A stretch of 64,000 bases of DNA from NCBI RefSeq assembly GCF_022045235.1, contig NW_027266264.1, forward strand, positions 77,376,001 to 77,440,000, written 5' to 3'. The position numbers and the translations under genes were made by a program. Under the pieces are notes generated by a model, which made no database searches, had not been told where the DNA came from, and worked only from the letters and a program-made list of their open reading frames with translations. This document shows, in pieces, positions 8,376-62,424 of this stretch. The stretch's first letter is position 1. Each line of letters starts with the position of its first letter. Source of the stretch: Haliotis cracherodii. Taxonomy: Eukaryota.

Positions 8376-8835
8376 CAATGAACCCCGATAATCCAGACTT
8401 TAAGATTCACGACGTAATCGTCTGGATGTATGGATTGCGGTCTGTAATTAATCGAGTCTGGACCAGACAATCCAGTGATTGACATCATGAACATCGATCT
8501 ACGCAGTTGGGATACGATGACATGTATCAACCAAGTCAGCGAGTCTGACCACCCGATCCCGTTAGTAGCCTCTTACGACAAGCATAGTCGCCATTAACGG
8601 CGAGCATGGGTTGCTGAAGACCTATTCCACCCCGGATCTTCACGGGTAGCAACCTTACAGGTAATCATTACATCCGACAGGTCCTGGAACCAGTTGTTGC
8701 CCTCCATTTCTACAACCACCATGCTGAAGATAATTTCTAACCCGGATCTTCAGGGATGGTATTACAATTATACAGTAATCGTTCGGAAATCGGGATGTCC
8801 TGTCTAACGGGGTCCAGATTAACGAGGTGTCACGG
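8376..8835. mobile_element. Possible old pogo/Tigger-like MITE containing nested family B insertions
   Basis: Left end TA-caatgaaccccgataatccagac compared with the reverse complement of the right end, ccgtgacacctcgttaatctggac, gives about 17 of 24 matches. Confidence 0.4.
8437..8647 (-). mobile_element. Family B short retroposon (tail missing), with an extra head fragment at 8718-8756
   Basis: Reverse complement of the 14532-14799 copy, from acccgtgaagatcc through ccagactcgatta. Confidence 0.92.
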
Positions 8836-9379: not shown

Positions 9380-9544
9380 GGGGCGGTCGGGTAGCCTAGT
9401 GATTAAAACGTTCGCGCGTCACGCAGAAGGGCTGGTTTTGATTCCCGACATGGGTACAATGTGTGAAGCCCATTTCTGGTGTCCCCCGCCGTGATATTGC
9501 TGGAATATTGCTAAAAGCGGCGTAAAACCACACTCTCTCACTCT
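9380..9544 (+). mobile_element. tRNA-derived SINE, family A
   Basis: ggggcggtcgggtagcctagtgattaaaacgttcgcgcgtcacgc...gctggaatattgctaaaagcggcgtaaaaccacactctctcactc. Confidence 0.93.
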
Positions 9545-14531: not shown

Positions 14532-14799
14532 GACCCGTGAAGATCCGGGTTAGAACAGGTCTTCAGCACCCCATGCTTGCCGTAAAAGGCGATTATGCCT
14601 GTGGTAAGAGGCGACTAACGGGATCGGGTGGTCAGGCTCGCTGACTTGGTTGATACATGTCATCGTATCCCAAGTGCGTGGAACGATGCTCATGATATCA
14701 ATCACTGGATTGTCTGGTCCAGACTCGATTATGTAAAACCGCCGTCATATAGCTGGAATATTGCTGAGTGCGGCGTTAAACAACCAGCCAACCAACCAA
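14532..14799 (+). mobile_element. Family B short retroposon, full length
   Basis: Runs from gacccgtgaagatccgggttagaa to atatagctggaatattgctgagtgcggcgttaaacaa plus (CCAA)n. At least nine related copies occur in the window. Confidence 0.95.
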
Positions 14800-15597: not shown

Positions 15598-15815
15598 TTT
15601 TTTTTGTTGTTTAACGCCGTACTCAGCAATATGACGGCGGTCTGTAAATTATCGAGTCTGGAACAGACAATCCAGTGTTTGACCACATGTGCATCGATCC
15701 ACGCAATTGGGACACGATGACATGCATCAACCAAGTCAGCGAGCCTGACCACCCGATCCCGTTAGTCGCCTCTAATGACAAGCATGTGTTGCTGAAGACC
15801 TATTCTACCCCGGAT
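15598..15815 (-). mobile_element. Family B short retroposon
   Basis: ttgttgtttaacgccgtactcagcaata ... cccgttagtcgcctctaatgacaagcatgtgttgctgaagacctattctaccccgga. Confidence 0.93.
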
Positions 15816-16799
15816 TTTTAAAAATGAAAACCCACATGTCAACATTAGCATCGTTGTTCATTAATGCAGGCAACATATCAAATATAAAACAAATGAAAAC
15901 AAATTATTGAACACGCTTTACTGCACACCCAAATCGATAAATAAATTTCTTCACTAAAATTAGATTTGCAGTGTTATTTTCCATGGGTTGTTTTATATTT
16001 TTCAAATGACGTCGACGAGTCTTTATGTTGTTACCGTCGCCTCCCTGATGCATCCAACAAAACAGTGTCTGCATCTCTGACAGTGTAATTCTCTAAAAAA
16101 CATCCTTTAGCCGGCATGTGATATTCAATTTATTATTTAGTTCTAGCCCTTTAGTTATAAATACCTGGGATAATGTTCGCAGACAGAATCACCCCATATC
16201 CCGTAATCGTTGCTCATTTCATCGTCGACTTTTGTTAAAAATGCTTACACACCCTCTCACTTCTCCGGTTCCCCCATCGATCGTCAACGTTGATACTGAT
16301 GAGTTATTTATTTACTTCTTATCGCTTCATATTGTCAACGATAGTTGAGAAATGTCAATGATATTTTAGAAATAGACGAGATAATTCACTTCTCTTCAGC
16401 GGTAGCAATTGGCAGTCTCAGCGAAATCTACATCTTTGTGTAATGAAATATTGATACAGACAGCCGTACATAGTCTCTTTCCTTGCATCAATACATCTAA
16501 GGTGCAGAAACTTGATTGGCAAAGGTTGAATAAATAGCATTCATTTCGATCAATTTTCGAAAACAGACGCACCGTGATGTTTCTGTTTTCAAAACCACCA
16601 ACCGGAGTTAAAGAAAACAGAACAATAAGTCCCGAATGTGTTCATGAACGCATGAAAAAAATATACCAATTTTCACGACAGTTAACTTAAAGTTAAATCT
16701 ATTGTACGCGTTATCATCGAGGAATAAACAGAAATACAAACACACGCTTTCGAATATCGAAATCATGGAATTAAGCGGCTGCGGTTACAGTATCCAATG

Positions 16800-19067: not shown

Positions 19068-19276
19068 CTGTTATTAATAATCGAGCCTGGACCAGTCAAT
19101 CTAGTGATTGACATCATGAACATCCATCTACTCAATTGGGATACGATGACATGCATCAACCAAGTCAGTGAGTCTGACCACCCGATCCCGTTAGTCGCCT
19201 CTTACGACAGGCATAGTCGCCTTTTACAGCAAGCATGGGTTGCTGAAGACCTATTCTACCCCGGATTTTCAACGGT
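19068..19276 (-). mobile_element. Family B short retroposon (tail missing)
   Basis: aataatcgagcctggaccag...gtcgcctcttacgacaggcatagtcgccttttacagcaagcatgggttgctgaagacc. Confidence 0.93.
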
Positions 19277-21332: not shown

Positions 21333-21592
21333 TTGGTTTGTTCTTTAACGCTGCACTCAACAATATTCCAGCTGTATGACGATGGTCTGTAAATAATCGA
21401 GTCTGGACAAGACAATCTAGTGATTAATATCATGAGCATCGATCCACGCAATTGGGATCGATGACATGCATCAACCAAGTCAGCGAACCTGACCACCCGA
21501 TCCCGTTAGTCGCCTCTCACGACAAGCATAGCCGCCTTTTACGGCAAGCATGGGTTGCTGATGACCTATTCTACCCCGGATCTTCACGGGTC
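21333..21592 (-). mobile_element. Family B short retroposon, full length with TSD
   Basis: Complete head to tail. Flanked by tggatacgaagt (21321-21332) and tggatacgaggt (21593-21604). Confidence 0.95.
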
Positions 21593-21758: not shown

Positions 21759-22004
21759 TATGGTAGAAGAGATCGTTATACAATGTTCTGGATAAGACGG
21801 GGTACGAATGGTCACAGTAGCTGATACGTAGGACTTGATAAGGACAGGCTGCCACGTTAGAGCTGACACCTCATTCATATTGACGTGTGCCAATCAAGGA
21901 CAACGATACGTGATTAAGATCATGTGAATGTAACAATGATATTTCTCCAAGTAAGGAATCATCAAGACCGACAAAAGCGGCAACCAATATACACAATGTT
22001 TCTG

Positions 22005-23270
22005 TTTGAAGCATTGGTTACACACAATACATGCTTCTGTAGGGCGGCTGTCTTTAAGATAAGACATTGAAGCAGAGCTTACACTAAATACATGCTTCTG
22101 TAGGGCGGCTGTCTTTAAGATAAGACATTGAAGCAGAGCTTACACTAAATACATGCTTCTGTAGGGCGGCTGTCTTTAAGATAAGACATTGAAGCAGAGC
22201 TTACACTAAATACATGCTTCTGTAGGGCGGCTGTCTTTCAGATAAGACATTGAAGCAGAGCTTACACTAAACACATGCTTCTGTAGGGCGGCTGTCTTTC
22301 AGATAAGACATTGAAGCAGAGCTTACACTAAATACATGCTTCTGTAGGGCGGCTGTCTTACAAGATGAGACATTGAAGCAGAGCTTACACTAAATACATG
22401 CTTCTGTAGGGCGGCTATCTTTAAGGATGAGACATTGAAGCAGAGGTTACACACAATACAAGATTCTATAGGGCGTCTGTCTTACAAGATGAGACATTGA
22501 AGCAGAGCTTACACTAAATACATGCTTCTGTAGGGCGGCTGTCTTTCAGGATGAAACATCATAGCACAGGTTACACACAATACAAGATTCTATAGGGCGT
22601 CTGTCTTACAAGATGAGACACTGTATCGTAGGTGACACGAAATACATGATTATGTAAGTGTGTGTGAGCAGATAACGCTGGAGCGTACGTTACATACAGC
22701 AGAAGATTACGTGGAGCAGCTGTGTTAGAAGGTGGAACACTAGCACGGATTACACACACTGCATGCTTCTGTAGGGCGGATGTCTTTCAGGACGAATCAT
22801 TGTTGCATTGGTTACACACAATACATGCTTCTGTAGGGCGGCTGTCTTTCAGGATGAAGCATTGTTGCATTGGTTACACACAATATATGCTTCTGTAGGG
22901 CGGCTGTCTTTCAGGATGAAGCATTGTTGCATTGGTTACACACAATTTATGCTTCTGTAGGGCGGCTGTCTTTCAGGATGAAGCATTGTTGCATTGGTTA
23001 CACACAATTTATGCTTCTGTAGGGCGGCTGTCTTTCAGGATGAAGCATTGTTGCATTGGTTACACACAATATATGCTTCTGTAGGGCGGCTGTCTTTCAG
23101 GATGAAGCATTGTTGCATTGGTTACACACAATTTATGCTTCTGTAGGGCGGCTGTCTTTCAGGATGAAGCATTGTTGCATTGGTTACACACAATTTATGC
23201 TTCTGTAGGGCGGCTGTCTTTCAGGATGAAGCATTGTTGCATTAGTTACACACAATTTATGCTTCTGTAA
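22005..23270. repeat. 61/62-bp minisatellite with two separately homogenised sub-arrays
   Basis: Core atgcttctgtagggcggctgtcttt. Period is 61 bp at about 22030-22550 and 62 bp at about 22765-23270, with a diverged junction between them. Confidence 0.97.
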
Positions 23271-24897
23271 AGTGACTGTTAGAAGATAGAACGTTGTAGC
23301 AGAGATTGTAGATAAATGATACTGAAAACTGAAGGACAAGTGGCATACAAGATGGATAAAAGTATTGTAGAAATAGTTTCATGACAACCTCAACAACTTT
23401 TATATTCTCATACAACATGAAAAAATGGATAAGTATTCTAAAATTCACTTCCTCTTATAAAAACTGTGACACTATCTGAAATAACCATTCCGCATTTTCA
23501 CAGAATTGCTCGGATGTGTGAAAAATTGCGTTAAGTCGTGTATAAAAATTTAAAAGGAGCCGCAGGACAAATCCGCAGTAAATGAGAACCTAAGAAGGTC
23601 GACTCGTAAGACGTTACAGAGGACTAGATCAACAAACTCATCCGTAAAACCAATCCTGGTTTCAATTTGTGTCCCCGGATTCTTATATACTCTTCATCTT
23701 GTGCAGTCGGGTAAAGAAAATTTGGGACAAAAACCCACCTAGAGCATCTAACGTTTGAAACTAAATGTTGTTAAAATCCCAATGACAGCACACAATCATG
23801 ACAGTTTCGCGAAATAACCGTTAACCCTGGCAGGGGACTATACGTGGCAGTAGTAAGGGGGACAAATAGAAACTATTTGCTTGCCTAAATATCACGTTTT
23901 TACACCAGACTAGGGGGCTTATCTCAAGTCCAATCCGCCGAGCCTCAATTGAAAAATCAAATCCGATCACGCTAGTCTATTAGAAATGATCCGCCAGGGA
24001 TTCGAAACCCGGCTTTTTATCCTTGATTGGAGGGACACACACTGAAGGAAAGGGGTATTGATTAAGAACTCTTCAATTGATGGAGACTAAAAACGCGGGT
24101 ATTGACCGCCACCTTGCCACAGGGGTACAAACCCTTGCTCCATTACGATCAATCTGTTAGATAGCCAGATCAGACAAAGTGGGTTCCCTCGTACGCTCTA
24201 ATACCAGACTCGGAACTTATTTCCCACATCAGGGGCGCTGCCCGGAGCTTGTCTGGGGAGTCTTTACGGATCTGAGATTCTAACAGAGAATTGGTTCAGT
24301 GGCAGAAACCCCCCGTGAGCTTTAATGCCAGACTTTGAGCATATTTAGTACATGAGGGACACTGCCTTGAGCTTTGATTCCTGGAATTCCTTCCTTCTTG
24401 TGATAACAACTTTCCCCAGGCGTCAAGATGCGATATATGTTCTGGGAATGTTCTCGTTTTCATAATATTCGTCAGACATAAATATGATGCCCCGAGTTTT
24501 CGAACCTCCAAGGAAGTAAAGACTATGTCTGTCTTTTACCATTTATTAAACAGAATGCACTCGGACCCAATTTAAGACAGCTCGTCGCTTGTAAGAACAC
24601 CTAGGCCACTGATCAACGGTATATATTCAGCCTATATGCCCACATAGATTATTGGTAACCTAAACACGTGATGCAGGCTTTGTTTATCCAGCTGCAAGTC
24701 CCACAACTCCGTTGGTGTTTTTGTGACGTAAGGTCATATGTATCTGGTGGTTTATTGCATATATATTGTGTATATTGTTCTTCTATATGCATACCGATAA
24801 CACCATAATCAAAATGAACATGTTCCGTTGATAATGTTCTAACGTTATGAATTGTTTGGAAATCATTATTCATAATATAAATATTATTTCCACATGA

Positions 24898-25063
24898 GTG
24901 AGTGAGTGAGTAAGGTTTTACGCCGCTTTTAGCAATATTCCAGCAATATCACGGCGGGGGACACCAGAAATAGGCTTCACACATTGTACCCATGTCAGGA
25001 ATCGAACCCGGGTCTTCGGCGTGACGAGCGAACGCTTTAACCACTAGGCTACCCGACCGTCCC
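24898..25063 (-). mobile_element. Family A SINE, full length with 12-bp TSD
   Basis: atttccacatga at 24886-24897 and 25064-25075. The A box and B box are intact. The 3' half of the head resembles tRNA-Asp (cgctcgtcacgccgaagacccgggttcgattcc). Confidence 0.97.
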
Positions 25064-26222: not shown

Positions 26223-26475
26223 GGGATTAGGTTAGTTCGAATGTCTTGCACTGTGCTGTTTACTTAATTTTGGCTTGGAACCAGACCTGGGTCCATTTAT
26301 ATGCTAAGAACATGAGCGAGTGAAAATATATTATTATTTCAGAAATCTTAAGGAAATTGGGGATTGGGGTAGATGATTAGGGATGGGGAGAAGTTGGGAT
26401 GATGCAGGTGTGAGGAATAATAGCGTTTGTAGAGATATGTGTACTGTTACCCCCTACCGTATGTTTTCGTGTAGT

Positions 26476-26631
26476 GAGTGAGTTTGATTTTACGCCGCTT
26501 TTAGCAATATTCCAGCAATATCACGGCGGGGGACATAATGAGCCTCAGACATTGTATCCATGTCGGGAATCGAACCCGGTCTTTGGCGTGACGAGCTAAC
26601 GCTTTAACCGCTAGGCTACCCGATCGCCCGA
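26476..26631 (-). mobile_element. Family A SINE with 9-bp TSD
   Basis: tcgtgtagt at 26467-26475 and 26632-26640. Confidence 0.95.
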
Positions 26632-30000: not shown

Positions 30001-30155
30001 GTGAGACTGTAAGGTTTTACGCCGCGTTTGAAAATATTCCAGCAACATCACCACCTGGGTTTCAAGAGATGGGCGTCATATGTACCCATGTGGGAAGTCG
30101 AACCCAGGCCTTCGGTTTGACGAGCGAAACCTTTAACGAGGCTGCACCACCGTCC
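30001..30155 (-). mobile_element. Diverged family A SINE
   Basis: ggttttacgccgc...aatattccagcaa...tgtacccatgtgggaagtcgaaccc...gacgagcgaa. Confidence 0.85.
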
Positions 30156-30189
30156 AAACAAGCCTTAGACAAAGCCATTGTGTTAATAG

Positions 30190-30359
30190 ATATATATCCT
30201 TGTGTTTCTGTTTTACAGAGAGAATGAAGGCATGACACCAATATCTGTCAACATCCAACCTTCTTGTGTTACTAAATATATGTATATATCCTTGCGTTTC
30301 TGTTTTAAAGAGGGAATGAAGCCACCAGTATGTGTTACCAGCCAACCTTCTTGTGTTAC

Positions 30360-30400
<41 letters not shown>

Positions 30401-30555
30401 TTGTGTTTCTGTTTTGAAGAGGGAGTGAAGCCACCAGTGTGTGTTACCATCCAACCTTCTTGTGTTACTAAATATATATATATATCCTTGTGTTTCTGTT
30501 TTGAAGAAGGAATGAAGCCACCAGTATGTGTTACCATCCAACCTTCTTGTGTTAC

Positions 30556-30590
<35 letters not shown>

Positions 30591-31976
30591 TTGTGTTTCT
30601 GTTTTAAAGAGGGAGTGAAGCCACCAGTGTGTGTTACCAGCCAACCTTCTTGTGTTACTAAATATATATATATATCCTTGTGTTTCTGTTTTGAAGAGGG
30701 AATGAAGCCACCAGTATGTGTTACCAGCCAACCTTCTTGTGTTACTAAATATATATATATATATATATATCCTTGTGTTTCTGTTTTAAAGAGGGAATGA
30801 AGCCACCAGTGTGTGTTGCCAGCAAAAATTCTTGTGTTAATAAATATATATATATCCTTGTGTTTCTGTTTTAAAGAGGGAGTGAAGCCGACAGTATGTG
30901 TTACCGTCCAACCTTCTTGTGTTACTAAATATATATATATATATATTTGTGTTTCTGTTTTAAAGAGGGAATGAAGCCACCAGTATGTGTTACCAGCCAA
31001 CCTTCTTGTGTTACTAAATATATATATATCCTTGTGTTTCTGTTTTAAAGAGGGAGTGAAGCCGACAGTATGTGTTGCTATCCAACCTTCTTGTGTTACT
31101 AAATATATATATATCCTTGTGTTTCTGTTTTAAAGAGGGAATGAAGCCACCAGTGTGTGTTACCAGCCAACCTTCTTGTGTTACTAAATATATATATATA
31201 TATATATATATATCCTTGTGTTTCTGTTTTAAAGAGAGAATAAAGCCACCAGTGTGTGTTACCATCCGACCTTCTTGTGTTACTAAATATATATATATCC
31301 TTGCATTTCTGTTTTAAAGAGGGAATGAAGCCACCAGTATGTGTTACCAGCCAACCTTCTTGTGTTACTAAATATATATATATATCTTTGTGTTTCTGTT
31401 TTAAAGAGGGAATGAAGCCACCAGTATGTGTTACCAGCCAACCTTCTTGTGTTACTAAATATATATATAGATCCTTGTGTTTCTGTTTTAAAGAGAGAAT
31501 GAAGCCACCAGATGTGTTACCAGCCAACCTTCTTGTGTTACTAAATATATATATATATCCTTGTGTTTCTGTTTAAAGAGAGAATGAAGCCACCAGTATG
31601 TGTTACCATCCAACCTTCTTGTGTTACTAAATATATAAATATATCCTTGTGTTTCTGTTTTAAAGAGGGAGTGAAGCCACCAGTGTGTGTTACCATCCAA
31701 CCTTCTTGTGTTACTAAATATATATAATATATCCTTGTGTTTCTGTTTTAAAGAGGGAATGAAGCCACCAGTGTGTGTTACCAGCCAACCTTCTTGTGTT
31801 ACTAAATATATATAAATATCCTTGTGTTTCTGTTTTAAAGAGGGAATGAAGCCACCAGTGTGTGTTACCAGCCAACCTTCTTGTGTTACTAAATATATAT
31901 ATATATCCTTGTGTTTCTGTTTTGAAGAGGGAATGAAGCCACCAGTATGTGTTACCATCCAACCTTCTTGTGTTAC

Positions 31977-32011
<35 letters not shown>

Positions 32012-32168
32012 TTGTGTTTCTGTTTTAAAGAGAGAATGAAGCCACCAGTGTGTGTTACCATCCAACCTTCTTGTGTTACTAAATATATATATATATATCC
32101 TTGTGTTTCTGTTTTGAAGAGGGAATGAAGCCACCAGTATGTGTTACCATCCAACCTTCTTGTGTTAC

Positions 32169-32245
<77 letters not shown>

Positions 32246-32400
32246 TTGTGTTTCTGTTTTAAAGAGGGAATGAAGCCACCAGTATGTGTTACCAGCCAAC
32301 CTTCTTGTGTTACTAAATATATATATATATCCTTGTGTTTCTGTTTTAAAGAGGGAATAAAGCCACCAGTATGTGTTACCAGCCAACCTTCTTGTGTTAC

Positions 32401-32452
<52 letters not shown>

Positions 32453-32695
32453 CTTGTGTTTCTGTTTTGAAGAGGGAATGAAGCCACCAGTATGTGTTAC
32501 CAGCCAACCTTCTTGTGTTACTAAATATATATATATATACTTGTGTTTCTGTTTTAAAGAGGGAATGAAGCCACCAGTATGTGTTACCAGCCAACCTTCT
32601 TGTGTTACTAAATATATATATATATCCTTGTGTTTCTGTTTTGAAGAGGGAATGAAGCCACCAGTATGTGTTACCATCCAACCTTCTTGTGTTAC

Positions 32696-32730
<35 letters not shown>

Positions 32731-32887
32731 TTGTGTTTCTGTTTTAAAGAGAGAATGAAGCCACCAGTGTGTGTTACCATCCAACCTTCTTGTGTTACTA
32801 AATATATATATATATATCCTTGTGTTTCTGTTTTGAAGAGGGAATGAAGCCACCAGTATGTGTTACCATCCAACCTTCTTGTGTTAC

Positions 32888-32964
<77 letters not shown>

Positions 32965-33119
32965 TTGTGTTTCTGTTTTAAAGAGGGAATGAAGCCACCA
33001 GTATGTGTTACCAGCCAACCTTCTTGTGTTACTAAATATATATATATATCCTTGTGTTTCTGTTTTAAAGAGGGAATAAAGCCACCAGTATGTGTTACCA
33101 GCCAACCTTCTTGTGTTAC

Positions 33120-33171
<52 letters not shown>

Positions 33172-33843
33172 CTTGTGTTTCTGTTTTGAAGAGGGAATGA
33201 AGCCACCAGTATGTGTTACCAGCCAACCTTCTTGTGTTACTAAATATATATATATATACTTGTGTTTCTGTTTTAAAGAGGGAATGAAGCCACCAGTATG
33301 TGTTACCAGCCAACCTTCTTGTGTTACTAAATATATATATATCCTTGTGTTTCTGTTTTAAAGAGGGAGTGAAGCCGACAGTATGTGTTACCAGCCAACC
33401 TTCTTGTGTTACTAAATATATATATATCCTTGTGTTTCTGTTTTAAAGAGGGAATGAAGCCACCAGTATGTGTTACCAGCCAACCTTCTTGTGTTACTAA
33501 ATATATATATATATATCCTTGTGTTTCTGTTTTAAAGAGAGAATAAAGCCACCAGTGTGTGTTACCATCCGACCTTCTTGTGTTACTAAATATATATATA
33601 TCCTTGCATTTCTGTTTTAAAGAGGGAATGAAGCCACCAGTATGTGTTACCAGCCAACCTTCTTGTGTTACTAAATATATATATATCCTTGTGTTTCTGT
33701 TTTAAAGAGGGAATGAAGCCACCAGTATGTGTTACCAGCCAACCTTCTTGTGTTACTAAATATAGATATATATCCTTGTGTTTCTGTTTTAAAGAGGGAA
33801 TGAAGCCACCAGTATGTGTTACCAGCCAACCTTCTTGTGTTAC

Positions 33844-33898
<55 letters not shown>

Positions 33899-34045
33899 TT
33901 GTGTTTCTGTTTTAAAGAGGGAGTGAAGCCGACAGTATGTGTTACCGTCCAACCTTCTTGTGTTACTAAATATATATATATATATATCCTTGTGTTTCTG
34001 TTTTAAAGAGGGAGTGAAGCCACCAGTATGTGTTGCTATCCAACC
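30190..34045. repeat. Compound minisatellite: about 41 copies of a 74-bp unit, each followed by a variable (TA)n tract
   Basis: Unit ccttgtgtttctgttttaaagagggaatgaagccaccagtatgtgttaccagccaaccttcttgtgttactaaa. (TA)n ranges from about 5 to about 35 units. Confidence 0.99.
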
Positions 34046-38817: not shown

Positions 38818-38999
38818 GACCCGTGAAGATCCGGGGTATAACAGATCTTTAGCGACCCATGCTTGCCGTATAAGGCGACTATGCTCGTCGTTAGAGGCGA
38901 CTGACGGGATCGGGTGGTCGAGCCTCGATTACTTTCGACCCGTCATCATTATATGGAATATTTCTGAGAGCGACGTTAAACAACAAACAAACAAACAAC
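38818..38999 (+). mobile_element. Family B copy with internal deletion
   Basis: Intact head gacccgtgaagatccgggg...gggatcgggtggtc joined to ctcgatta and the tail gacgttaaacaa(CAAA)n. Confidence 0.9.
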
Positions 39000-45500: not shown

Positions 45501-45738
45501 AGATCCGGGGTAGAATAGGTCTTCAGCCACCCATGCTTGTCGTAAGAGGCAACTTACGGGATCGGGTGGTCAGGCTCGCTGACTTGATTGATGCATGTCA
45601 TCCTATCCCAATTACGTGGATCGATGCTCATGATGTCAATCACTGGATTGTCTGGTCCAGACTCTATCATTTACAGACCGCCGTCATATAGCTGGAATAT
45701 TGCTGAGTGTGGCGTTAAATAACAAACAAACAAACAAA
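45501..45738 (+). mobile_element. Family B short retroposon (single-hairpin subtype)
   Basis: agatccggggtagaataggtcttcagccacccatgcttgtcgtaagaggcaacttacgggatc ... ggcgttaaataa(CAAA)n. Confidence 0.95.
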
Positions 45739-46501
45739 GCAAGACCCCTGAATGTTTCTACATCAGCTGTCACACCTGTGAAACAAATGTCACGGCTCCA
45801 TAAGGGCCAACGTTCGTTCTTGGATACGTCAACTCAAACTTCTGGGAGCATGAGGAAGGCTCCTGCAGAAGGACAGATAGATATTGCCCCTTAACCAAAT
45901 AGAAGAAATTGGCCCAGGTAGTGTTCCTGATGACAATTCAAGCTAATTACTTGCTCGAGGTCTCAGTCGTACAAGAACATGAAACGTTCATCAACGAGAA
46001 TCATACTGTGCGGTCCTCCTGCAACATAAATATTATCTGAGCATACATAATATTTGTTGCAGATATTACAAGCACTGGATCTGACATATGAAACAATAAT
46101 TTAAAAGTGTGATAATCTCTGAAGGTGGTGTGGAACCTCGTGTTGGTATCATCCATTAATATTTCAATAATAAGCTGCCTGCTGAAATCCGCTTCCCTTG
46201 ATCAAGATGCTGAATCCGTAGCTGGAGCTGTTGGATGTAACAGAAGTCAGTCTGCGTCTCAGCCACGGATCTTATAAGACGCTCTTGCTTTAGGTTTTCT
46301 AAGGTGAAGCTGAAACAAAAACATTGACAGACAGATCATGTAGCATCACTTATTCTCAATAATGTTACGGAGATCGTAAAAAAGGTAGGTAGAATCGTTT
46401 ACACTCGTTAAACGTCGCAACGACACGTGCACGTAGCTCTCATGTCCTGAACGAGTGACGGTTTCGAATCTGACTCATTGCGCGGAACAGTGATAGTGAT
46501 A

Positions 46502-49500
46502 TCAGATAGTGATGATGTCAGTTTGAACTGTATGGAAATGAGAACAATATTGATTCAAATATCATTAGATGAGAGAATCCATTAACAAACTTATTAACGT
46601 TCATCATGATGGTTTTGATATTCTTTGAATGGCGGCTTCAGGCTTTACAAGAATAAAATATTACAAATGATGATTTCAATTTCTTAAAATCAATCACAAT
46701 AAATTAGATCCTAAAATACGCAATTCCCATTTTATTTCTGTTTAATGAATATCCTGTTCCTAAGTTAATGAAATTTTATTGAAATTCTGCCATGGAGCAT
46801 TTTCGTCCGAGGCCATTATTGTTATTCTATGTATTTGGCATATTTTTTTAACAAGTCCCATAATCAATACAATACGAACGACATGAATTTCATTTATGAT
46901 TAATTTGTCAGCCGAAGTTTAAAAGGAACTGTATTTTCTTTTCCATAGTGTATTATTTATGTTTCCTATTCGGTTTACAATGTAAGTATTTAATGATTCT
47001 TGAAGCCTGTAAGCTCGGTTGAGTTTTAGGTAGAAATGGACACGTGTTACATACTGTCTCTTACTTGGTGTCCAGACAGCGTGGTGTCTTACACCAAAGA
47101 CGTGGATCACAGCTCACGATAGTGTGTTACTGATCACTGGATTGTCTGGTCAAAATTCGATTGTTTTCAAGCGGTCGTCGTTTGGCAGGGGTATTGCTTG
47201 ATGCAGTGTTAAACAACAAACAAATTTTGAGAATGGCGGGTGATACTGGTAGGACTGAACACGAAACCTTTTTAGCGAACACCTAATGGCATCACTGATT
47301 TTCAGTGATTCATTTCTATAACTTGCATCACTATTTTGACCTTTACGTCTCATGGAAACTGTTTCCACAGATACCCGAGACTGATTATTCTCTGGCGTTG
47401 AGGGTTTAATTTACTCGTGAGTTAGTGAAATAGTTCCATGTTCCAGCACGTGTATCCCTGATATTGTACACGCGTCACAGCAATATAACGGTAAATCAGT
47501 GCCTCGCTCCGTATTTAGTGAGTACTACATCATGCAGCATCACTTCATAGGTTTGACTTAAAAATAATAAGCCGTATCTTACGTATATTTCCACACCACA
47601 CAAGGGCATGCTCAAAGCTCTATTATTACCCCGGTTACTGGATCAGTGTGCACTCAACAATCATTCTCAGCTCCCTGGGGGGAGTATGCAATCCAAGCTG
47701 CATGTTAGGTGCTGGAAGGCTAACAACCACATTGTCATCATACACACATATATGCATGTAGTTTATTTGTAATCATGTTGTAACTGATAACCCATAACAC
47801 AAAATAAAATAAACTATCATACTGCCCAAATGAACGAGCCAACCCTCTCACCACTAGGCCAGCCCACCTTCGTGTCACCATGGGGTACAGGACGTGTCCT
47901 AAACTAGTCTCCTGTCTACTGATATCTGGCGAAGTGACTATGGAAACGGTTAAAGTAATACGTATGTGTCCATTTCGCAGAAACTGTGTTGTCTTCACTT
48001 CTTGTGTTTCCCTTTGAATAATATACTCAAATGTGTCACTCGTTATTGTAGACGATATCCTAGACTTTCAGGCAACCTTCAGTGAATATTGGACGGATAT
48101 CTCATATTCATGGGATGAAATCCTAATTGTCACATCAATATTAATGAGATGATGTACTAGTAATTAATTGATTTCAACACAAATTCACACTGTTTAGTTG
48201 TAATTTATCTTGTTTTAAGATAAACCTTCTCCAAATACCATTTTTACAAAGTCATACAATTTCAAGCATACATTTTACTTTTTTCTAAGATTCTAAATAT
48301 TTGGCCCAATAATCTACTGAAGTTAAAGTCATTTCCAGCATTTTGATGTTTAGTTCCACAGCAGCAGGATATTTCAATCACGTCTATTGAAGGTTGATAG
48401 TTTCATTTGTGTGTGATCATTTAGGATTTGAAATGATAAACAGTTGATAACTGGTTTCTATACAATGGAGAAATAGACAAAGGTTTACTGACAAAACCCT
48501 TTCAATAATCAAAAGAGATATCTGCTTTTGGCATGCAGTTTAAGGAATCTCCGTTGTACTTTTACGACTTTATCACAAACAGGTGTTTATGAATCACTGT
48601 CAGATAGTGATGATGTCAATTAAAACCGTATGGAAATGAGAATGATATTGATTCAAATATCATTAGATGAGAGAATCCATTAACAAACTTATTAACGTTC
48701 ATCATGATGATTTTGATATTCCCTGAATGGCGGCTTCAGGCTTTACATGGATAAAATATTACAAATGATGATTTCAATTTCTTAAAATCAATCACAATAA
48801 ATTAGATCCTAAAATACGCAATTCCCATTTTATTTCTGTTTAATGAATATCCTGTTCCTAAGTTAATGAAATTTTATTGAAATTCTGCCATGGAGCATTT
48901 TCGTCCGAGGCCATTATTGTTATTCTATGTATTTGGCATATTTTTTTAACAAGTCCCATAATCAATACAATACGAACGACATGAATTTCATTTATGATTA
49001 ATTTGTCAGCCGAAGTTTAAAAGGAACTGTATTTTCTTTTCCATAGTTTATTATTTATGTTTCCTATTCGGTTTACAATGTAAGTATTTAATGATTCTTG
49101 AAGCCTGTAAGCTCGGTTGAGTTTTAGGTAGAAATGAACACGTGTTACATACTGTCTCTTACTTGGTGTCCAGACAGTGTGGTGTCGTACACCGAAGACG
49201 TGGATCACAGCTCACGATAGTGTGTTACTGATTACTGGATTGTTTGGTCAAAATTCGATTGTTTTCAAGCGGTCGTCGTTTGGCAGGGGTATTGCTTGAT
49301 GCAGTGTATAAACAACAAACAAATTTTGAGAATGGCGGGTGATACTGGTAGGACTAAACACGAAACCTTTTCGCGAACACCTAATGGCATCACTGATTTT
49401 CAGTGATTCATTTCTATAACTTGTATCACTATTTTGACCTTTACGTCCCATGGAAACTGTTTCCACAGATACCCGAGACTGATTATTCTCTGTCGTTGAG

Positions 49501-51479
49501 GGTTTAATTTACTCGTGAGTTAGTGAAATAGTTCCATGTTCCAGCACGTGTATCCCTGATATTGTACACGCGTCACAGCAATATAACGGTAAATCAGTGC
49601 CTCGCTCCGTATTTAGTGAGTACTACGTCATGCAGCATCACTTCATAGGTTTGACTTAAAAATAATAAGCCGTATCTTACGTATATTTCCACACCACACA
49701 AGGGCATGCTCAAAGCTATGTTATTACCCCGGTTACTGGATCAGTGTGCTCTCAACAATCATTCTCAGCTCCCTGGGGGAGTATGCAATCCAAGCTGCCT
49801 GTTAGGTGCTGGAAGGCTAACAACCACATTGTCATCACACACACATATATGCATGTAGTTTATTTGTAATCATGTTGTAACTGATAACCCATAACACAAA
49901 ATAAACTAAACTATCATACTGCCGAAATGTACGAGCCAACCCTCTCACCACTAGGCCAGCCCACCTTCGTGTCACCATGGGGTACAGGACGTGTCCTAAA
50001 CTAGTCTCCTGGCTACTGATATCTGGCGAAGTGACTATGGAAACGGTTAAAGTAATACGTATGTGTCCATTTCGCAGAAACTGTGTTGTCCTCAGTTCCT
50101 GTGTTTCCCTTTGAATAATATACTCAAATGTGTCACTCGTTATTGCAGACGATATCCTAGACTTTCAGGCAACCTTCAGTGAATATTGGCCGGATATCTC
50201 ATATTCATGGGATGAAATCCTAATTGTCACATCAATATTAATGAGATGATGTACTAGTAATTAATTGATTTCAACACAAATTCACACTGCTTAGCTGTAA
50301 TTTATCTTGTTTTAAGACAAACCTTCTCTAAATACCATTTTTACAAAGTCATACAATTTCAAGCGTCCCTCACACAAAGCATATCGCGCTCATTTTACTT
50401 TTTTCTCAGATTCTAAATATTTGGCCGAATAATCTACTGAAGTTAAAGTCATTTCCAGCATTTTGATGTTTAGTTCCACAGCAGCAGGATATTTCAATCA
50501 CACCAGTCAAAGAAGGTTGATAGTTTCACTTATGTGTGATCATTAAGGATTTGAACTGAAATGATAAAAAGTTGACAACTGGTTTCTATTCAATGGAGGA
50601 ATAGACAAAGGTTTACCGACAAAACCCTTTCAATAATCAAAAGAGATATCTGCTTCTGGCATGCAGTTTAAGGAATCTCCATTGTACTTTTACGGCTTTA
50701 TCACAAACAGGTGTTTATGAATCACTGTCAGATAGTGATGATGTCAGTTAGAACTGTATGGAAATGAGAACAATATTGATTCAAATATCATTAGATGAGA
50801 GAATCCATTAACAAACTTATTGACGTTCATCATGATGGTTTTGATATTCTCTGAATGGCGGCTTCAGGCTTTACATGGATAAAATATTACAAATGATGAT
50901 TTCAATTTCTTAAAATCAATCACAATAAATTAGACCATATATATACGATGTTTAATGTTTAATGAATATCATGTTCCTAGTTTAATGAAATTAGATTGAA
51001 ATTCTGCCATAGGGCATTTTCGTCCGAGGCTATTATTGTTATTTTATATATTTCGCATATATATAATGAATAATATACTCAAATGTATCACTCTCGTTTC
51101 GTCATTGTAGAATATATCCTAGACTTTCAGGTAGCCTTCAGGTAATATTGGACGGATATCTTATGTTCATGATGAAATCAGAATTGTCACATCAACACTG
51201 ATGAGATTATGTACCAGTAAATTATTGATTTCAACACAAATTCACACTGTTTAGTTATAATTTATGTATGTCTTAAGACAAACATGTATGTGTTAAAATA
51301 CCATTTTTACATACAATTTCAAGCGTCCCTTACACTAAGCAAATCGCGCTCGTTTTAACTTTTTACTGAATATTTGGCGCAATAATCTACTGAAGTTAAA
51401 GTATTTCCAGCATTTGGATGTTTAGTTCCACAGCAGCAGGATATTTCAATCACGCCTGTCAAAGAAGGTTGATAGTTTC
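46502..51479. repeat. Tandem segmental triplication with a ~2.1-kb unit (third copy partial)
   Basis: tcagatagtgatgatgtca starts at 46502, 48600 and 50728. Copies 1 and 2 are near-identical. Copy 3 lacks about 1.2 kb of the middle and is more diverged. Confidence 0.97.
47588..47865 (-). mobile_element. Degenerate SINE with an L2-like tail (duplicated at about 49686-49962)
   Basis: Minus strand begins ggcctagtggtgagagggttggctc (A-box-like) and ends ...ccggggtaataatagagctttgagca. Confidence 0.45.
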
Positions 51480-52976
51480 CTCCCTGGGGCGAGAAGTTAT
51501 TGGCTGAAACGCACGCAATATTTTTCATTTCTCATCTAATTTCCGGCAATTTCGTAAATGATCATGGCACTGAAATTCAAACTCTCCCATAGCCGAAGAG
51601 GAAAATAAAATACTAAAAAGTTCAGGAGGATGAATGACAAAGTCAGGTGTACATATCAAACAATAACTGAACTCAAAGGACTAGTCTTCTTGACGATATG
51701 ATATTAACTATTTATATAGTAAAGACGACCATACATTTCAAGCTTTGATTGTTATTTGACATACTTCTATTCGAATTTTTGCTATTTTAAATATCGTTTG
51801 AAAGTTAAAATATTTGGCCTGTCATAACAAAACATAGTAAATTTACAGAATGCTTATATACGTGTTTACAACATAGAAATACAAATTACAAGCAGGTCTG
51901 CAAAGATAAGGAAGAATCAATGCCTTGGGCAATAACGGATCATCTGTCCCGGGGGAATGTGTGAGGTGTGAGGTGCAAGCCCTATGATTGGGATTCGTTT
52001 CAAGTGGTATACAATCCTTGTATCGGGAGGACTATGTGTCTGATAACATGAGGCAGGATGTCACGTGTGTTCTCACTCCGATGACGTATGAGGCCATGAC
52101 CACGTCGGAAGATTTTGTTGTTCTCACACAACTTTCTCAAACCAGATGTAACGATTTTCATTGTGTTCACAATAAAAACGTATATTTTCAAAATATATGT
52201 CATGTCTTCAAGCAAGAAAAACGCAATCATCGTGGTATTTACACAAATGCGTTTTAGGTGTGTTATTGGCCGACACAATTAAGAATTAACGATAACCGAG
52301 GCACGTTTACATAATGTAGGATTAAAAAATAATGAAAGAGAAAGATGTGCTGACATCGTGGAACACTGCTCGGAACCATCAAAGGAAACCTTTATATTTA
52401 AGGCCAACCGACTTCACTGGCACAATTCCACACGGTTGACATGCAGTATAAATGAACAGCTAATATGCTGATTGTAGAAATTATCATTCGCGCAAAAAAC
52501 AACACAGGAAAAACGTTGTGAAAGGTTGATTGCTATGCGATGAGCCGTATTCAGACTCCTCAGCTGGAAGGTATGTAGCTACGCTGCTAATTTCCTACCG
52601 TCATCCTATCCTCCCCTGCCATGATGGCGTCTGAAGACAACAGTTTAAATTTGTGGACTCATTATAGAAATGTCACAGAATGCCTGTAGCTGTCGGAAAC
52701 ATCAGGGTGATCACTGACACCACCTTAGCTCGCCCACAAAGACAGAGCTTTTACTCCCTTGAGCCAATAGAGCGGTTGTAATTTCCCGGGAATCGTGTTC
52801 AAAATCTACCTGCTTTGACTTATCAATTCCTGCCCGAAGGGACCTCGTTGGATGCCGCTATCAAAGATGTCTGTTTGATTACTGGTGATTAAAGATCCTC
52901 TTCCGATGCCTTAGTAGTATACTGCTTCAAGTTATGTTAGGAATTTCTGTCATATTTGTTTGACACTTGATGTGAG

Positions 52977-53136
52977 TAAGTGAGAACGGTTTAACGCCGA
53001 TTTGAGCAATATTCTAGTAATATCACGGCGGCGAACCCCCGAAATGGGGTTCCCACATTGTACCCATGTGGAGAATCAAACCAAGGTCTTCAACGTGACG
53101 AGCGAACGCTTGAACCACTAGGCCACCCCACCGCCC
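52977..53136 (-). mobile_element. Family A SINE with degenerate TSD
   Basis: cacttgatgtgag (52964-52976) and cacttggtgtaag (53139-53151). Confidence 0.9.
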
Positions 53137-59592: not shown

Positions 59593-60634
59593 ACTGAAAT
59601 TACCTGACTTTTATCATAGATGATTTTCATATAACCCTACTGAGTTCACATCCCTCTAGGGACAAGGGGACACATACAACCACCAAAACGTAATCGGTCA
59701 AGTCGCTATTCCCTACGGTGTGATTGACACACATGTTCTGTCTAACAGTGTTGGTGACTCCAGTTGATCTTAATGCCTGGCATCTAAACACTGCCCCTGT
59801 CAAATACATGTAATCCATTCTCACGGGACGGGCACAATTACAACCAGTTACCGGGACACGGTGGTCGTTATTGCTGCCACTGCTGGTTCACCTTGTGACA
59901 TATGCCCCTATTATTACCTCCTGTGACAGAATGTTTGCCTTTTCTGACCTGCCTTAATGATTCCACAGTAACAAATGTATATTATCGTATTTGCTCTGTT
60001 TGATTTCCTTACATTGAGCATTGGCACTGGTTGGTTACAATAAAAGCTAGCTGGTAATGAAAGCTCACTGAAGTAATTTGCTCTGTATTACATACTGATA
60101 AATTACTACAATGTATTTATCAATGAGACAACGAGGTCTGTAGGCTAATTTAGAATTCGATTTGAAACGTAAATAAAATTTTCCCTCTAATCGTAGAACT
60201 TCCAATAAGCCATCCTACGTCATTAAGTACAACATTTGGGGAAACTGCTTGAACGCATCCTTCGAGGCATTTTAATTAAAATCAATGTTTTAAACTCGGA
60301 CCGAATACTTGACTAATAAGCAAATCCAAATCGCAGAACCTTATTGAAGTTTTTTCCGTTGCGATGTTATTAATATGATATATGTCATAAATATTTCCAT
60401 TACTTTTAACAACTGTAACGCACGAAAAGTGCAACCTTGCTTCGTTAAACACCAATTACAAAAATACCTAGGACTTTTGAAATGAAGAAGAGGCTTTATT
60501 CGGTCCAGCAGTTATGAAGGCAAATTCTATGGCATGTATAATTAATCATCAAGGCACTGTCTCTCTAGAGTCTTGTGTGTTTTCTTTGCATTGACGTATT
60601 GTTATCCGCGAAAGAATACCGTCATCACCATCTC

Positions 60635-62290
60635 TACAGTGGCCTTGTCATCCGAGACACCGCATCCGTACAGGACCTTGTCATCTGAGACACCGCATCT
60701 GTACAGGACCTTGTCATCTGAGACACCGCATCTGTACAGTGACCTTGTCATCTGAGACACCGCATCTGTACAGGACCTTGTCATCTGAGACACCACATCT
60801 GTACAGGACCTTATCATCTGAGACACCGCATCTGTACAGTGGCCTTGTCATCTGAGACACCGCATCTATACAGTGACCTTGTCATCTGAGACACCGCATC
60901 TGTACAGGGGCCTTGTCATCTGAGACACCGCATCTGTACAGGGGCCTTGTCATCTGAGACACCGCATCTGTACAGGACCTTGTCATCTGAGACACCGCAT
61001 CTGTACAGTGACATTATCATCTGAGACACCGCATCTGTACAGTGACCTTGTCATCTGAGACACCGCATCTGTACAGAACCTTGTCATCTGAGACACCGCA
61101 TCTGTACAGTGGCCTTGTCATCTGAGACACCGCATCTGTACAGTGACCTTATCATCTGAGACACCGCATCTGTACAGTGACCTTATCATCTGAGACACCG
61201 CATCTGTACAGGACCTTATCATCTGAGACACCGCATCTGTACAGTGACCTTATCATCTGAGACACCGCATCTGTACAGTGACTTTGTCATCTGAGACACC
61301 GCATCTGTACTGTGACCTTATCATCTGAGACACCGCATCTGTACAGTGACCTTGTCATTTGAGACACCGCATCTGTACAGTGACCTTGTCATCTGAGACA
61401 CCGCATCTGTACAGGACCTTGTAATCTGAGACACCGCATCTGTACAGTGACCTTGTCATCTGAGACACCGCATCAGGACAGTGACCTTATCATCTGAGAC
61501 ACTGCATCTGTACAGTGACCTTATCATCTGAGACACCGCATCTGTACAGGACCTTGCCATCTGAGACAACGCATCTGTACAGTGACCTTATCATCTGAGA
61601 CACCGCATCTGTACAGTGACCTTGTCATCTGAGACACCGCATCTGTACAGTGGCCTTGTCATCTGAGACACTGCCTCTGTACAGTGACCTTATCATCTGA
61701 GACACCGCATCTGTACAGGGGCCTTGTCATCTGAGACACCGCATCTGTACAATGACCTTATCATCTGAGACACCGCATCTGTACAGGACCTTGTCATCCG
61801 AGACACCGCATCTGTACAGGGGCCTTGTCATCTGAGACACCGCATCTGTACAGTGACCTTATCATCTGAGACACCGCATCTGTACAGGACCTTGTCATCT
61901 GAGACACCGCATCTGTACAGGGGCCTTGTCATCTGAGACACCGCATCTGTACAGTGACCTTATCATCTGAGACACCGCATCTGTACAGGACCTTGTCATC
62001 TGAGACACCGCATCTGTACAGTGACCTTATCATCTGAGACACCGCATCTGTACAGGACCTTATCATCTGAGACACCGCATCTGTACAGGACCTTGTCATC
62101 TGAGACACCGCATCTGTACAGTGACCTTATCATCTGAGACACCGCATCTGTACAGGACCTTATCATCTGAGACACCGCATCTGTACAGGACCTTATCATC
62201 TGAGACACCGCATCTGTACAGGACCTTATCATCTGAGACACCGCATCTGTAAAGGGACCTTGTCATCTGAGACACCGCATCTGTACAGGG
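60635..62290. repeat. 33/34-bp minisatellite, about 49 copies
   Basis: cctt(g/a)tcatctgagacaccgcatctgtaca followed by gga, gtga, gtgg or gggg. Confidence 0.99.
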
Positions 62291-62424
62291 GTTGTGATCA
62301 GACAAAAATACTGTTCAAAACAAACCTCATGTCACTCACTCAAGATCTGTACACGTTTTGGTGCCATACGTTTTTCACATACCCTCATCCCGTGTCTAGA
62401 TAATATATATATTCGCCGAACGTG

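Follow-up and report, generated by a model that had tools for sequence, protein, structure and literature searches.

The locus raises the question of what kind of RNA heads a short repeat that begins sharply at position 14532, and whether this RNA is an HDV-like ribozyme, as an earlier note had proposed. The window, that is, the whole 64,000-nt stretch of DNA that was analysed, contained seven recognisable copies of this ~260-bp repeat. The copies, and the tail of the first one, were as follows:

14532..14799, forward strand: full-length LP-type SINE with LP head, body, LINE-like tail and (CAAC)n-type repeats
14739..14799, forward strand: 3' tail of this copy, similar to the tails of intact I/Nimb-like LINEs and of the window's tRNA-derived SINEs
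21333..21592, reverse strand: full-length SINE copy with an exact 9-nt TSD
38818..38996, forward strand: SINE copy with an intact head and an internal deletion
8449..8647, reverse strand: SINE copy with two hairpin units and no tail match
19077..19276, reverse strand: SINE copy with two hairpin units and no tail match
45501..45739, forward strand: single-hairpin SINE copy without the first bases
15606..15818, reverse strand: single-hairpin SINE copy without the first bases

Identity and abundance of the repeat

The common start point that had been claimed was recovered, as the copies at 14532 (+), 38818 (+) and 21592 (-) all open with GACCCGTG. The exact 9-nt TSD ends directly before 21592 and marks the boundary of that copy, as described earlier; no exact TSD of at least 7 nt was found for the copies at 14532 and 38818. 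Among 30 SINE loci, a TSD of at least 7 nt was present at 13, and six of these end exactly at +1. The SINE 5' end is not ragged, as conservation was at background 3 nt upstream of CCCG in the 45 intact-head copies found among 60 loci. Additionally, four SINE families with at least 12 scored copies each all started 1-2 nt 5' of the first predicted stem (S1, see below), the conserved first base of the module was often a purine, and the SINE heads had unrelated flanks.

The head was correctly described as free of Pol III promoter boxes: the B box was absent, and only one A-box-like string with one mismatch was present, inside the hairpin. A Rfam scan of the whole window returned only two weak tRNA matches, none of them in the SINE head. 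A tRNA- or 5S-headed SINE was rejected because the head has neither Pol III boxes nor a Rfam match. The tRNA-derived SINE family of the window, which has both A and B boxes and a LINE-like tail in common with the LP-SINE, occurs at 9381-9544, 24900-25063, 26473-26625 and 52975-53136. The window also contains tandem arrays at 30110-33900 (~87-nt unit), 60596-62354 (33-34), 21945-23338 (61-62) and 46502-51027 (~2100).

Judged by its sequence, the SINE is a non-autonomous member of the LP-SINE family and its head is the LP head; the family and the head sequence have already been described (PMC4758252), which settles whether the motif was in print, a point that the earlier note had left open. According to the accessible text of that paper, LP-SINEs (Matetovici et al. 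2016) are named after a ~70-bp head common to the 5' ends of three LINE families that bear it, Nimb-17_LMi, I-3_DR and RTE-9_CPB; LP stands for 'LINE promoter', the Haliotis families are Hdi_LP and Hmi_LP, the Haliotis LP family is 255 bp long, and the scallop MESC SINEs share the head. The same text treats the head as a presumed promoter by analogy with Pr77, and in its accessible parts it gives no RNA structure, mentions no viruses and names no mobilising LINE. LP-SINEs share with the present SINE the ~70-bp non-tRNA head, a length of ~255-260 bp, a short tandem-repeat tail and TSDs. By eye, the layout of the SINE head matched the 'Nimb-17 homology' block in the accessible part of supplement S2 of PMC4758252, where the scallop LP head had the same layout, hairpin and CUAA, with other but pairing stem bases. 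Identity with Hdi_LP itself we infer from layout and length (the 14532 copy is ~260 bp, near the Hdi_LP consensus length of 255 bp). A search of the openly accessible literature found no structure or test of the LP head.

The SINE head and the intact-LINE heads of this genome showed 78-81% identity over 59 nt, and the body between head and tail had no match in 40 LINE regions beyond interspersed SINE copies. The bipartite non-autonomous LINE derivatives described in the accessible text of Kojima 2018 (PMC5786205) are likewise short and non-coding, with a LINE-derived 5' part and tail, but the present SINE differs from them in its unmatched body and in that the terminal ribozyme of the LINE is absent from it.

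In the genome (1.18 Gb, 80 contigs), 1,334 one-hairpin and 13,906 two-hairpin heads were found as exact pattern matches, and reversed-sequence controls for both patterns gave 0 matches; the SINE copy number is therefore at least 15,240, a lower bound that counts exact-pattern matches only. The single-hairpin form is a minority in this genome, at about 1 in 11. The consensus had been drawn with a single hairpin, but the copies at 14532, 38818 and 21592 each have two tandem 22-nt hairpin units; since all of the named copies are of this kind, the 'single-hairpin consensus' represents the minority form. In a sample of 30 single-hairpin copies selected without using the first 20 nt, ACCCGTG (with up to one mismatch) was present in 14, and the other 16 were mutated or 5'-truncated.

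Predicted fold of the LP head

The fold that we predict for the module consists of an H-type pseudoknot, an AGAAU linker and then a second stem with an internal loop and a GUCG-UAARAGG-CGAC hairpin. In the 14532 copy, its elements lie as follows:

14533-14537 with 14546-14550, forward strand: predicted pseudoknot stem S1, followed by a one-nucleotide loop, U at 14538
14539-14545 with 14558-14564, forward strand: predicted stem S2, the inner stem of the earlier note
14551..14557, forward strand: pseudoknot loop L3, ending in AGAAU in general and in AGAAC in this copy
14570-14572 with 14620-14622, forward strand: stem C, 3 bp here and 5-6 bp in most other families
14574..14595, forward strand: first 22-nt hairpin unit, an altered copy; the tandem duplication is the majority form in the genome
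14596..14618, forward strand: second hairpin unit, GUCG-UAARAGG-CGAC plus UAA, with GUGG in this copy; C14615 is paired

Across families, the predicted pseudoknot is of the classical H-type, with an S1 of 4-5 bp, a one-nucleotide loop, an S2 of 7 bp and a loop ending in AGAAU. Pairing was evaluated with fixed anchors and 10000 partner swaps among 27 representatives, of which this genome supplied 3, metagenome or genome contigs 18 and viruses 6. The set excludes families whose loops carry long insertions, single copies that were degenerate or truncated, duplicates, and three matches due to chance. S2 scored 6.19 versus 5.19 +/- 0.14 in swaps and S1 (the 5' segment with the loop) 4.04 versus 3.40 +/- 0.14, each with 0 of 10000 swaps as good, and stem C (the pre-hairpin segment with the post-UAA segment) scored 4.44 versus 3.91 +/- 0.17, with 12 of 10000 as good; as the families are related, these counts are not probabilities. 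The fold is supported by these results, and the inner stem drawn earlier, which is S2, is conserved across families. The other two pairings of the earlier drawing did not hold up: the outer stem CCCG/CGGG scored 3.07 versus 3.15 in swaps (7337 of 10000 as good; 40.6% of cells paired), and the pseudoknot between the GGGU of the loop and the downstream ACCC scored 3.96 versus 3.84 (2221 of 10000 as good), with no change on both sides. An S2 of at least 6 together with an S1 of at least 4 was present in 17 of the 27 representatives versus 3 of 121 loose-pattern matches, one of these being a true copy; the background consisted of 120 loose viral-pattern stretches, nearly all of them chance.

On alignment A2, 83.6% of cells were paired in the revised fold versus 72.6% in the earlier one. 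In particular, S1 was 84.4% paired, and stem C only 62.8% because its register slips. Five of the seven S2 pairs changed on both sides; the count of such pairs on this alignment was not above shuffles, being reached in 121 of 500. In the LINE heads, each S1 pair was formed in 43-46 of 46, and one S2 pair was A-U in 35 and C-G in 10, which is a compensatory change. The 5' part of the L3 loop carries insertions of 60-150 nt in some families, which mostly still show the 5' strands. The invariance of the 17-mer and of the hairpin was imposed by the search patterns. Single-sequence folding was unremarkable against shuffles (z -1.24, +0.12, -1.67 and -1.42). In this SINE family, the nested energy of the earlier fold was -14.8 kcal/mol versus -13.1 kcal/mol for the nested part of the revised fold, and the MFE structure contains the outer stem; the earlier conformer is thus energetically allowed in the SINE, and both conformers may form.

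These results bear directly on the earlier model of an HDV-like ribozyme lacking P1, with an outer stem, a loop-ACCC pseudoknot, a P4 hairpin and the catalytic C in CUAA. The five-pair register proposed for the hairpin was complete in only 6 of the 27 representatives, versus an intact GUCG/CGAC in 26, and the supposed catalytic C closes this GUCG/CGAC hairpin in 26 of 27 and is therefore base-paired. The CUAA tetramer is also not a fixed feature, as the 46 LINE heads read CCAA in 21, CUAA in 16, CCGA in 7 and otherwise in 2. P1, P3, L3 and P1.1 were all absent from the SINE head, in keeping with the earlier caution that this is not a standard HDV ribozyme; a search for P3 and L3 in the head and upstream flank of the 14532, 38818 and 21592 copies found none, and none of 100 listed SINE heads with an upstream CTAA showed the end of the LINE ribozyme. 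The energetics above allow the drawn nested fold in this family, but its outer stem and pseudoknot are without cross-family support, and with the missing elements, the paired C and the variable CUAA we consider the model hardly credible. The twister, pistol, hatchet, hairpin and hammerhead ribozymes were also considered, and their layouts do not appear to fit the head.

The module in LINEs, viruses and other genomes

In a contig designated L292, the module lies ~380 nt ahead of two ORFs, one zinc-knuckle-like and the other for an endonuclease, and the latter, used as a query, gave 113 scored matches in this genome. Of 40 LINE regions examined, 38 had a long ORF2, and in 33 the module lay upstream at a distance of about 1.7-2.1 kb. 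These partner LINEs have two ORFs, the second with APE endonuclease, RT and RNase H, and we take them to be Nimb-like from this domain layout and from the shared head. All 33 module-bearing copies started 58 nt before the module, at G1 of a minimal HDV-like fold, and none started at the module; the LINE TSD ended at G1 in 27 of 35. Across 46 in-register LINE heads, the P1 (7 bp, with a G1-U wobble), P2 and P3 pairs were each formed in 45-46, P1.1 was formed in 44-46, L3 read UCCUCGU in 41, and the J4/2 C was present; the helices were nearly invariant, with no both-side change. By the defining features given in the accessible text of PMC10879173, PMC3774820 and PMC11331408, the 5' end of the partner LINE would be classed as a canonical minimal HDV-like ribozyme, an example of which is:

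L346:1646-1703 = G000:C3:25424345-25424402, forward strand: LINE ribozyme

A predicted ribozyme of this kind forms the precise 5' terminus of some 700-860 copies of the I/Nimb-like LINEs (L344-L392). Genome-wide, its last junction lay upstream of 756 of 864 LINE-type modules; nine modules without that junction were among the first 100 listed, and all nine keep the ribozyme with point changes. Conversely, the module pattern missed 19 ribozyme cores; in 14 of these a module carrying point changes is present, and the remaining 5 show internal deletions or are interrupted. In three public runs of other organisms, contigs diverge at the same LINE boundary. No ribozyme on I/Nimb-like LINEs was found in print in the literature searched, and the accessible text of Kojima 2018 (PMC5786205) lists six LINE clades with ribozymes, Nimb or I not among them.

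On the question, raised earlier, of whether the motif caps autonomous LINEs, it was found near LINE 5' ends but not in the outermost position, since the HDV-like ribozyme lies upstream in 33 of 33. Likewise, a conserved, pseudoknotted non-tRNA head linked to LINE 5' ends was borne out, but not its HDV-like identity, as the unpaired J4/2 C is absent and a canonical ribozyme is found upstream instead. The tail of the intact LINE resembles that of the SINE, so this I/Nimb-like group is the likely mobiliser of the SINE. The first 131 nt of the LINEs differ by 4.9%, with one compensatory S2 pair, while ORF2 is 75.8% identical; the conserved 5' stretch is ~320 nt long, and its conservation could reflect recent exchange of 5' UTRs. 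Conserved 5' UTR blocks also continue downstream of the module between L292 and the LINEs of this genome.

Several further observations were made on these elements. In L346:1646-1735(+), the strands of the module pseudoknot follow one another as they do in the P1/P2 frame of the ribozyme, and the module linker resembles the J1/4-J4/2 stretch without P4; speculatively, the module may be a duplicated ribozyme minus P3/L3. Dense clusters of intact LINEs, many nested in one another, lie at G000:C2:20.8-21.7 Mb and C6:4.2-5.7 Mb. Two divergent LINE 5' ends on opposite strands, ~700 nt apart, were found in L393 (G000:C1:41090600-41092300), and such pairs occur at three places, including near C1:42288681 and C1:42302782. 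In run X20, 128 antisense small-RNA reads covered the module at L346:1709-1739, 127 of them from one start; they could be piRNA-like, or else repeated copies of a single molecule. Three small-RNA runs gave 1, 31 and 1 reads on the SINE, none in 14532-14611, which is uninformative for a 260-nt RNA. The L292 element (L292:2980-6045), a two-ORF LINE with an LP head, lies inside a bacterial symbiont scaffold, by host contamination or transfer, and by eye has no HDV-like fold upstream of the head.

Outside animal genomes, the 18-mer of the hairpin was found in 10 viral contigs, and the whole module in seven, two of which are the same virus. With a covariance model trained on 16 heads of non-viral origin, the seven viral copies scored 41-73 bits and the three contigs with only the 18-mer 27 and 14 bits. 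Four distinct contigs with the module encode RdRp or RNA-virus capsid domains; a fifth virus-like contig (L031) has an RdRp-like ORF by Atlas features alone (score 0.96, its recognition being below the tool's threshold) and carries the module in tandem, with the second copy cut off. In these five RNA-virus-like contigs, some 5-100 nt separate the last stop from the start of the module, and the distance from the end of the 18-mer to that of the contig is 27-119 nt. The sixth virus is represented by a 212-kb DNA-virus contig in which the module is intergenic, 141 nt before a long ORF. As RNA viruses have no DNA stage, the presence of the module in their contigs indicates that it probably acts as RNA; these viral copies may owe their paired stems to inheritance from host elements. 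Searches with two of the virus proteins recovered only the same viruses. When heads with different bases following the hairpin were sought in viral sequences, 10 stretches came up, and none scored above 18 bits.

The metagenome scan for the 18-mer gave at least 122 stretches, and prokaryote genomes gave 8 matches; together with the viral ones, 143 listed matches formed 35 clusters, the majority being SINE-like families of animals. A bacterial motif was rejected, as most of the prokaryote matches were repeats of eukaryote type, located in host-associated assemblies or at the ends of contigs, and one was due to chance. Related eukaryote-type short elements with an LP head were also seen at the ends of bacterial MAG contigs (L217, L288 and L293), probably by chimeric assembly, and in the L229 family (L173, L207, L214, L225 and L280) the LP head directly precedes a tRNA-like head, as in the scallop MESC SINEs.

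Proposed role and meaning of the LP head

Our tentative reading, to which we give somewhat less than even credence, is that the LP head sets the SINE 5' end by stopping 5'-to-3' exonucleases in read-through transcripts and not by self-cleavage. The SINE would be transcribed from host promoters as part of a read-through RNA, Xrn1/Xrn2 would trim this RNA up to the pseudoknot, the ORF2 protein of the LINE would recognise the SINE tail, and the SINE would then insert by target-primed reverse transcription. In LINEs, the 5' end would be produced by the upstream ribozyme, with the module acting as an additional barrier or in some other capacity. The freeing of the element from longer transcripts, as suggested earlier, is plausible in this form, but not through HDV-like cleavage, the fold for which is unsupported. 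The LINE copies are compatible with a passive block: all start at the ribozyme and none at the module, which speaks against self-cleavage or a fixed-start promoter there, because a cutter or fixed start at the module edge would yield ribozyme-less LINE copies and none was seen. A roadblock also fits a module that marks the end of the SINE yet not that of the LINE, as well as the 3' UTR position in viruses.

A known parallel is offered by the exoribonuclease-resistant RNAs (xrRNAs). Those of flaviviruses and of tombus/luteo-like viruses are, like the module, compact pseudoknots at the start of viral 3' UTRs, sometimes in tandem, according to the accessible text of PMC8374639 and PMC12397905 (often so in flavivirus 3' UTRs, PMC8374639), and they would leave a defined 5' end, as proposed for the module. 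At least one pseudoknot, a criterion for xrRNAs, is present in the predicted module fold; the defining xrRNA ring, of 15-16 nt, encircles the 5' end (PMC12397905, accessible text). The module differs in sequence and secondary structure and in sitting at retrotransposon 5' ends, and it matched no known xrRNA class, either in Rfam or in layout among the classes in the accessible text of these two papers. A stable 5' fold has been proposed to protect uncapped R2 RNA (PMC11331408, accessible text). The HDV-like ribozymes of R2, L1Tc/Pr77 and SIDEs, as presented in the accessible text of PMC3774820 and PMC6765202, resemble the SINE head as 5'-terminal pseudoknotted RNAs with a sharp boundary, but the head has no P3, L3, P1.1 or unpaired J4/2 C and corresponds to the module downstream of the ribozyme.

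Some observations weigh against a roadblock. The protected viral piece would be only about 100-200 nt long, mostly the module itself, which suits a translation or replication signal equally or better; the first base is often a purine, as at transcription starts; and the LINEs keep the module intact behind their ribozyme, so it may have another main job. One such job, unlikely though a serious contender, would be the binding of ribosomes or initiation factors, by which the module would act as a cap-independent translation element in uncapped LINE RNA and in viral 3' UTRs and would tether the SINE to ribosomes. For Alu, the analogous tether is SRP9/14. The sharp 5' end would then be a by-product of the stable fold, and this function is compatible with a roadblock rather than exclusive of it. 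It is favoured by the fact that LINEs retain the module, with a compensatory change, downstream of an HDV-like ribozyme, which gives an uncapped product, by the conserved blocks that continue downstream in the 5' UTRs of L292 and of this genome's LINEs, and by the placement of the module just past the last ORF of the RdRp or capsid contigs and 141 nt before the long ORF of the DNA virus. Uncapped retrotransposon RNAs need IRES-like initiation according to the accessible text of PMC6765202, and the apparent constraint on the module in LINEs and the short viral product favour translation or protein binding (PMC6765202, PMC13725137, accessible text).

A new class of self-cleaving ribozyme, with a core unrelated to HDV, that cuts its own 5' edge and is weak or dead in LINE copies, where the HDV-like ribozyme would act as backup, appears improbable. 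The module is compact and pseudoknotted, has many conserved unpaired bases and lies wholly 3' of the boundary; known ribozymes are found both at the 5' ends of LINEs and in the UTRs of linear RNA viruses, and the UAA stretch varies in ribozyme-bearing LINEs. However, none of the LINE copies examined has its start at the module (33 of 33, and a further 9 of 9), the fold is fully kept in LINEs, the virus contigs were assembled across the module although cutting would remove their 3' end, and no Rfam ribozyme matched. The published LP hypothesis of an internal DNA promoter, perhaps dual like Pr77, which is both promoter and ribozyme (PMC3383444, accessible text), we also regard as rather doubtful. 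The LP head does replace or precede tRNA heads in several SINEs, and the first base is purine-rich, but it is the pairing that is conserved while the loop tolerates insertions of 60-150 nt, the module occurs in RNA-virus contigs, and the ribozyme-less LINE copies that an edge-fixed start predicts were not seen.

The locus thus holds a known element for which the wrong ribozyme model had been drawn, and yet a real, undescribed RNA module. We are evenly divided on the wider proposal that the LP head is an undescribed functional RNA class, either an exonuclease roadblock or a ribosome-binding module and less likely a new ribozyme, which is exchanged whole between LINE clades, SINEs, a DNA virus and RNA viruses unrelated to one another, and which lets promoterless short elements be carved from host transcripts; an HDV-like ribozyme that lost its catalytic core may have supplied, in its P1/P2 frame, the ancestor of the pseudoknot. 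The HDV-like ribozyme on an RNase H-bearing I/Nimb-like LINE lies outside the six clades listed in the accessible text of PMC5786205. The LP head has been a presumed 'promoter' since 2016, and its fold, its viral occurrences and the tandem of ribozyme and module make its role assayable on a 75-nt RNA. The finding bears on the means by which many LINEs and non-tRNA SINEs come to be transcribed and acquire precise 5' ends. If Xrn1 resistance is true, the module would be an xrRNA-like element in animal genomes, which the accessible text of PMC8374639 names as still to be found, and would represent a new route of SINE biogenesis.
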